Assembly (NCBI RefSeq): GCF_006345805.1 | Contig: NC_043000.1 | Coordinates: 29,822,001-29,886,000 of the forward strand | Direction: 5' to 3' | Source of the DNA: Octopus sinensis | Taxonomy: Eukaryota | Length of the DNA stretch: 64,000 bases | Part shown: piece by piece, positions 53,041 through 53,452 of the stretch | Layout: the number at the start of each line of letters is the position of its first letter | Numbering within the stretch: the stretch's first letter is position 1 | Program-made: the position numbers and the translations under genes | The notes under the pieces: generated by a model | What the model was told of the DNA's origin: nothing | Database searches by the model: none | What the model saw: only the letters and a program-made list of their open reading frames with translations

Positions 53041-53452
53041 CACGTCACTACCTGGAATCGTACTCGGAATGTTGTGGTTAGTAACCCGCGATCGAATATA
53101 TGACGTAGTGGTTAAGAGCGCGGTCTACTAACCCCAAGAGTTCGAGTACGATTTCAGGCAGTGACCTGAATAATAATAATAATAATAATAATAATAATAA
53201 TAATAATAATAATAATAATAATAATAATAATAATAATAATAATAATAATAATAATAATAATAATAATAATAAATAATAATCATAATAACATCGAAAAATA
53301 CCTTAGGAATGAGAACTCAGGATCGAAATTTCTCCGACACCTGATAAAGCCGAAACATTGTGTTAACAACAAACAAGATGAGGACAAATATCCGTCAAAT
53401 GTAAATAATGTAAAATAATGCACATTATTTCTAATCTATTAAATATAGAACT
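53041..53452 (+). mobile_element. tRNA-headed repeat: head (53101-53168), (TAA)n, hammerhead-bearing tail (53290-53452); inverted partial head at 53041-53090
   Basis: A box 'tgacgtagtgg', B-box-like 'gagtacgattt'; tail matches the 26771-26910 and 31411-31551 family; hammerhead here is degenerate (CTGATAA, stem II deleted). Confidence 0.75.

Follow-up and report, generated by a model that had tools for sequence, protein, structure and literature searches.

A dead, partly inverted pseudo-LTR copy of an autonomous octopus Penelope-like element whose RNA probably begins at a tRNA-derived Pol III promoter

At positions 53041..53452 of the 64,000-nt stretch of Octopus sinensis DNA analysed here (the window), a tRNA-like head is joined through a (TAA)n spacer to a tail containing hammerhead-ribozyme sequence. 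An earlier note, made from the sequence alone, took this arrangement for a non-autonomous, Pol III-transcribed SINE with a tail borrowed from a Penelope-like element (PLE) and mobilised by a Penelope reverse transcriptase (RT). The locus raises the question of whether such a unit is a SINE in its own right or a piece of something larger, and of which polymerase transcribes it. PLE transcription, and the reason that PLEs leave many short copies, are poorly known, and the octopus family offers a testable case in which promoter type, RNA 5' end and RT start sites can be read from the genome. We conclude that the copy is a dead, partly inverted pseudo-LTR of an autonomous PLE whose RNA likely starts (probability about 0.6) at a tRNA-derived Pol III promoter in the pseudo-LTR.

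The pieces named at the locus (head, boxes, (TAA)n, tail and inverted head) were all present by sequence, blastn and alignment to the family profile. On the forward strand, the tRNA-derived head occupies 53098..53169 (positions 5-76, placed by family profile alignment and comparison with genomic tRNAs); its A box, from tRNA position 8, lies at 53101..53111 and its B box, with G53 at family position 53, at 53146..53155, and both are mutated in this copy. The head is followed on the same strand by the (TAA)n spacer (53170..53289), whose length is variable with a median of about 38 nt in 77 copies, and by the tail (53290..53453), which from an ATG at 53309 onward encodes the first ~51 codons of the PLE open reading frame (ORF). 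The tail includes a minimal type-I hammerhead (53336..53364), broken by deletion of helix II and by alterations of the core and stem III, the window equivalent of the predicted family cleavage site (after 53359), and the stretch that separates the two common 3' ends, the PLE tail extension (53429..53453; placed by 3'-end counts and PMC11167929). Head positions 23-76 recur on the reverse strand at 53040..53093 as an inverted arm, a PLE-type inverted, 5'-truncated copy identified by family profile alignment and blastn. This arm carries its own spacer, (TTA)n as read on the forward strand, at 52947..53039, recognised by sequence and interrupted on its left side, at about 52947, by a LINE 3' fragment. 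ARAGORN called no tRNA in the window, and neither a tRNA nor a hammerhead was among the best 150 of 294 Rfam rows, those 150 being microsatellite or inverted-repeat noise. By profile and ribozyme descriptor, both boxes and the ribozyme are broken, and the copy is a dead fossil of the pseudo-LTR. The earlier description thus stood as to the pieces of the unit, but missed that many copies continue 5' into a PLE stop codon and that the unit continues 3' into the PLE ORF. A second B-box-like word was seen in the tail at 53319-53332, just 5' of the hammerhead.

The same tail had been reported at two other places in the window, and blastn found it at both, each time with an inverted arm. The second insertion has an inverted arm at 26605..26772 (-) and a direct arm at 26771..26917 (+), and the third has a short inverted tail piece at 31349..31408 (-) and a tail copy with an internal deletion at 31409..31556 (+); by blastn the window tail copies are 73-92% alike. 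Other repeats were also seen in the window. The LINE 3' fragment (52181-52946, reverse strand) lies inside the (TAA)n of the inverted arm and has a CCHC knuckle and restriction-like endonuclease motifs; from these motifs and the TAA targeting we presume it to be Dong-R4-like, and while Pfam and PDB searches with it gave no match, an atlas search gave an RT zinc-binding lead only. A 113-bp element occurs at 52062-52174 and 39043-39155, the two copies being 95% alike and both set in TAA repeats. A 630-bp direct repeat, 99.8% alike (39765-40393 and 40978-41607, ~1.2 kb apart), is either a recent tandem duplication or an assembly artefact. Finally, a very abundant interspersed repeat, of which the window holds over a dozen copies, often nested (13464-14456, 22378-23452, 45524-45844, 47520-48840, 60286-60695, 62536-62918 and others), is likely a host SINE.

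The unit is almost certainly the pseudo-LTR of an autonomous PLE of the Penelope/Poseidon type. An autonomous PLE sharing the tail, for which the earlier note had suggested a search, was found: at one locus (L057) coding sequence for RT and endonuclease lies immediately 5' of a head. Among 30 loci found by the endonuclease end alone, which include the query locus and four near-duplicates, the head follows in 28, about 35 nt past the stop codon, and the tail in 25. Likewise, the tail lies directly upstream in 24 of 30 loci found by the 5' part of the ORF. The order of the element is therefore ORF stop, tRNA-like head, (TAA)n, ATG, hammerhead and the remainder of an RT-endonuclease ORF. A majority profile of 69 segments, built with MAFFT, gave a single open frame that extends from the tail ATG (window 53309) for 835 aa, and its N-terminus is read identically in real copies; an ATG in the last 35 nt was rejected as the ORF start, as that frame stops early. 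RVT_1 matches and the motifs DKG and YVDD identify the RT. The C-terminal region contains, in order, VYSIPC.C, GET, EH and ADH, which we take to be a GIY-YIG endonuclease with a CCHH motif. The endonuclease region of the ORF had no direct Pfam match; a homologue, P0084, carries PF01541 and aligns across it. The protein is 57% identical to P0008 and 38% identical, over ~780 aa, to a protein of Anolis carolinensis, and its homologues are 800-850 aa long. The linker between RT and endonuclease is without an extra zinc finger, there being just isolated Cys residues at 582, 637 and 652 before the endonuclease.

By these sequence features the family would belong with the Penelope/Poseidon clade. It has what is expected of an endonuclease-bearing PLE, namely a single PLE-type RT ORF, a C-terminal GIY-YIG-type endonuclease, a partial-tandem pseudo-LTR, inverted 5' arms and a tail extension; partial tandems, inverted arms and tails count among the typical features of PLEs (PMC8557442). 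The proposed Penelope-type inverted insertion was borne out by inverted arms at the locus and in the family, and mobilisation by a Penelope RT gains support, the unit belonging to an RT-encoding PLE. The 3' end without poly(A), which had seemed odd, is so because that end is PLE ORF sequence, and the idea that the tail is a LINE 3' UTR was rejected since the tail is PLE coding sequence. The 3' ends of 77 linked copies fall mostly in two classes, 32 at tail index 140-150 and 33 at 170-173. In the anole PLE, a two-ended tail was traced to two internal RT start sites (PMC11167929). Of 26 independent ORF-start loci, 6 (L329/L334, L335, L336, L340, L342, L349) have 3' ends of a third kind, which lie ~390-420 nt beyond the tail (~ORF nt 550-575), are often followed by a tail piece, and possibly mark a further internal RT start site. 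Contigs of four further organisms contain the unit and the ORF end at at least 80%, and among the matches listed one contig bridges ORF end and head in three of the four; a metagenome scan for DNA of related PLEs found none. We also observed a second PLE-related family (L381-L410), which is younger (96-98% alike). Its frame is 776 codons long, it has two CxxC motifs, its 3' region is rich in CA/TG, and its profile contains no CTGANGA.

The hammerhead consensus that had been pieced together from defective window copies proved to be that of the family: it is identical to the majority sequence of 113 copies from the genome, and this sequence passes the type-I descriptor and folds as a complete minimal type-I hammerhead with a CUGANGA, GAAA and NUH core, helices I and II and a palindromic stem III. 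The descriptor was passed by 24 of 96 copies and by none of 20,000 dinucleotide shuffles; none of the four window copies passed, in keeping with the description of all of them as defective. The hammerhead spans ORF codons 11-26, with its predicted cleavage site 70 nt past the ATG. The earlier note expected the ribozyme core to be better conserved than its flanks; within the family it was not (5.1% vs 5.7%), a lack of excess that is expected because the copies are dead and that is uninformative either way. P0008 keeps the peptides read from two core segments, the helix II part being different, which may be an indirect sign of core conservation across families. Inserted copies extend about 60-85 nt past the predicted cleavage site, which means that the RNAs they were copied from had either stayed uncleaved or been religated. 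Metazoan PLE hammerheads cleave weakly, as dimers (PMC4209133), and in the anole PLE cleavage requires protein and is dispensable for insertion (PMC11167929). For cutting, the octopus hammerhead would have to form a dimer or be assisted by protein; such putative cleavage would take away the start codon, and insertion can probably do without it.

The linkage of head and tail is not unique to the locus but genome-wide and common: a tail lies within 700 nt in 25 of 30 head loci, the focal one included, and one more is linked without a spacer. Evenly spaced 10-kb stretches held 6 loci in 76, which extrapolates to ~21,000 genome-wide (95% interval 7,900-46,700). On a rival reading, the unit is an independent SINE, with a tRNA head and a PLE tail, multiplying from its own master copies. 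Short copies do exceed long ones by about 6 to 1 and begin at the head, target duplications of 7-11 bp were found in 4 of 22 listed copies, and 30 of 88 copies keep both boxes. The head, however, belongs to the autonomous element itself, and the short copies (68) have the same majority sequence over 249 nt as the ORF-linked ones (45), with neither a diagnostic change nor a difference in age: after three duplicates were dropped, divergence was 5.9% for 58 short copies vs 6.5% and 6.1% for 18 and 23 ORF-linked copies. The largest differences between the two sets came from CpG decay, from gaps in the alignment or from positions that the search pattern itself had fixed, and the smallest P, 0.001, is not significant across 249 positions. 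In addition, the protein of the anole PLE needs RNA beyond the RT start sites (PMC11167929), RNA that solo copies would lack. An independent SINE is thus very improbable. Short and ORF-linked copies are one family of one age, and there is no short-copy subfamily; a tRNA-SINE would have a head absent from its autonomous partner and a non-autonomous lineage of its own, neither of which was found. The claim of a SINE with a borrowed tail was therefore abandoned, head, spacer and ribozyme all being native to the PLE. A non-LTR retrozyme, with non-coding monomers of 170-400 nt in head-to-tail arrays, was rejected as well, since the copies lie scattered, singly or as inverted pairs, and belong to an element that encodes protein.

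Most copies have a defined 5' end. Exact 18-mers were counted 946 times in the endonuclease (~120 nt further up), 940 times just 5' of the head, 5771 times in the head and 9345 times in the tail, with 0 for controls. Because the 6 loci from random sampling were too few, breakpoints were taken from position-ordered pattern matches, namely the first 90 of the 5771 head matches less 5 duplicates. Relative to tRNA position 1, the 85 independent copies have 51 ends at -8..+8, 15 at +9..+30, 0 at -9..-61 and 19 beyond, that is, rates per nt of 0.057 at the pile, 0 in -9..-61 and 0.004 beyond. Three independent copies bearing the ORF start begin at -7, -2 and +3, and four others extend upstream as tandems. 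The pile is very probably a real RNA 5' end. It might instead reflect RT that stalls or folds back, on a long RNA, at the tRNA-like structure and at a small 4-bp hairpin lying exactly at -7..+5, piling up 5' truncations with no transcript start. Many junctions are indeed fold-backs centred on the hairpin, and inverted arms are commoner in short copies (40/66) than in long ones (5/19). But the ends sit on the far (5') side of the hairpin, 23 of 26 short copies without an inverted arm also end there (-8..+5), and there are no ends in the next 53 nt and a 14-fold lower rate beyond, all of which makes stalling distinctly unlikely.

If the pile is an RNA 5' end, which polymerase begins there? The head resembles genomic tRNAs, 20 distinct sequences giving z of 2.4-8.7 against shuffles, with Arg-TCT best and Ala-TGC nearly equal. 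Read by the A- and B-box consensus, the family profile has its A box at position 8 and its B-box G at 53, which is tRNA spacing; both boxes are intact in the 30 of 88 copies mentioned above and neither is in the window copy. The sense strand of the 2639-nt unit contains 0 T4 runs, along with 13 T3 and 31 A4 runs. For this one ancestral sequence the P of T4 absence was 0.027 with a synonymous shuffle, the most conservative null, 0.007 with a base shuffle and 0.0008 with a third-position model. Real copies (59 kb) have 0.25 T4 per kb vs 2.07 expected, with A4 as expected. A related RT family of 31% identity and the same T content has 7 T4 runs (null 4.9), and in five other RT families, drawn from 30 loci, the counts are 15, 11, 1, 17 and 11, the low one being 1 in 1095 nt; the neighbouring 669-nt LINE fragment has 0. 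Because the 5' pile lies at the tRNA leader position, the boxes are at tRNA spacing and the unit is T4-free, we read the sequence as pointing to Pol III transcription from the tRNA-derived promoter in the pseudo-LTR, and on this point the earlier note was probably right.

Several points count against the Pol III reading. The hairpin, the frequent inverted arms of short copies and the minority of copies with intact boxes weaken a Pol III start; one control family and the LINE fragment are also T4-poor; a Pol III RNA would lack a cap and yet have to be translated; and, as argued in PMC10886601, the poor processivity of Pol III makes it unsuited to autonomous elements. Moreover, the pseudo-LTR of D. 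virilis Penelope contains an internal promoter like that of LINEs (PMC2377424), and a defined 5' end by itself therefore does not call for Pol III. The same autonomous PLE might thus be started in the pseudo-LTR by Pol II, the head being a relic of an old SINE insertion or serving only to make another, short RNA, and the absence of T4 runs being due to chance. Pseudo-LTR promoters are the PLE rule (PMC2377424; PMC6765202), Pol II would solve the cap problem, and the conservative P for T4 is only 0.027. On the other hand, the start coincides with the tRNA leader position, the boxes keep their exact spacing, the related family retains its T4 runs, and the sense ORF contains two AATAAA, a count not different from the null of 4.0. 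We regard a Pol II start as rather unlikely. Unstranded raw RNA reads (~6% of three runs of one study, organism B) followed copy number, with no pile of read beginnings or ends at the ribozyme or at -7. The short unit was abundant in RNA-seq reads, in both mates, with many inverted-junction reads (L343:1798-2100, runs X21-X23); inverted unit pairs in RNA would form dsRNA.

With Pol III as the preferred polymerase, the life of the element may be pictured as follows. Transcription would start ~7 nt before tRNA position 1 and read through the T4-free unit, the ORF and the next repeat. The element's RT would start at internal sites near ORF nt 130 or 155, just as internal starts were shown in vitro for the anole PLE (PMC11167929). 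From the start site nearest the RNA 5' end, only ~290 nt would be copied, giving a SINE-like unit; from that in the next tandem repeat, ORF-bearing copies would arise; fold-back or template switching would give inverted arms. Tentatively, then, an autonomous coding retrotransposon may have taken a tRNA-derived Pol III promoter, purged terminators over a 2.6-kb sense strand, been translated uncapped with a hammerhead across its first codons, and, through internal initiation, shed SINE-like units in the tens of thousands, which would mimic a SINE without having a SINE lineage.

PLE hammerheads, tails and inverted arms are already known, and Penelope families have been reported in octopus annotations (PMC13282606, PMC8967140). 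A literature search, with Repbase, Dfam and SINEBase entries, supplements and Ohshima and Okada 1994 outside its scope, found no PLE with a tRNA-derived promoter and no Penelope-mobilised SINE; repeat collections may already list the short unit under a SINE name. The proposed route to SINE-like repeats without a separate SINE bears on repeat annotation in genomes with many unclassified SINE families; in PMC13282606 these make up 893 of the 900 recently active ones. Pol III synthesis of the coding RNA, if true, would be unusual for a retrotransposon encoding its own protein, would break the working rule by which autonomous retroelements are transcribed by Pol II (or through Pol I read-through), and would raise the question of how an uncapped 2.7-kb RNA gets translated.

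Known systems share parts of this design. Some LINEs carry SINE-derived 5' ends. The tRNA-derived octopus SINEs OK, OR1 and OR2, which Ohshima and Okada reportedly described in 1994, are said to have a tRNA-like head, a length of a few hundred nt and tens of thousands of copies, and by these descriptions they are like the unit in head, size and copy number. OK is said to have a central trinucleotide tract; AAG tracts were found in only 1 of 77 spacers of the unit. OR1 and OR2 are cited as CORE-SINEs. Schistosome SM-alpha likewise has a Pol III-type promoter followed by a hammerhead, but consists of non-coding tandem repeats, whereas the octopus promoter-ribozyme unit is part of a coding PLE (PMC6765202). 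Metazoan PLE hammerheads are of the same minimal kind, type I with a short helix I, a bulged base before helix II and a palindromic stem III, and most are solo truncated copies, some in inverted pairs; they differ in that the available portion of PMC4209133 describes no tRNA-derived promoter, and cleavage by the octopus ribozyme is a prediction. Cassandra, Helenus and Ajax (TRIMp3; PMC10886601) also have a small-RNA-derived Pol III promoter inside a terminal repeat, but are short non-autonomous LTR elements, while the octopus element is an autonomous, non-LTR-like PLE of ~2.7 kb. In Poseidon of Anolis carolinensis (PMC11167929) we find the same RT ORF with a C-terminal GIY-YIG-type endonuclease, the same partial tandems and inverted 5' arms, two 3' ends that define the tail, and a minimal hammerhead overlapping the ORF start. 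The octopus PLE differs from it in the distance from ATG to cleavage site (70 nt vs 26), in the T4-free sense strand, in the large excess of unit-length short copies, and in having a tRNA-derived A/B-box head and (TAA)n in its pseudo-LTR.
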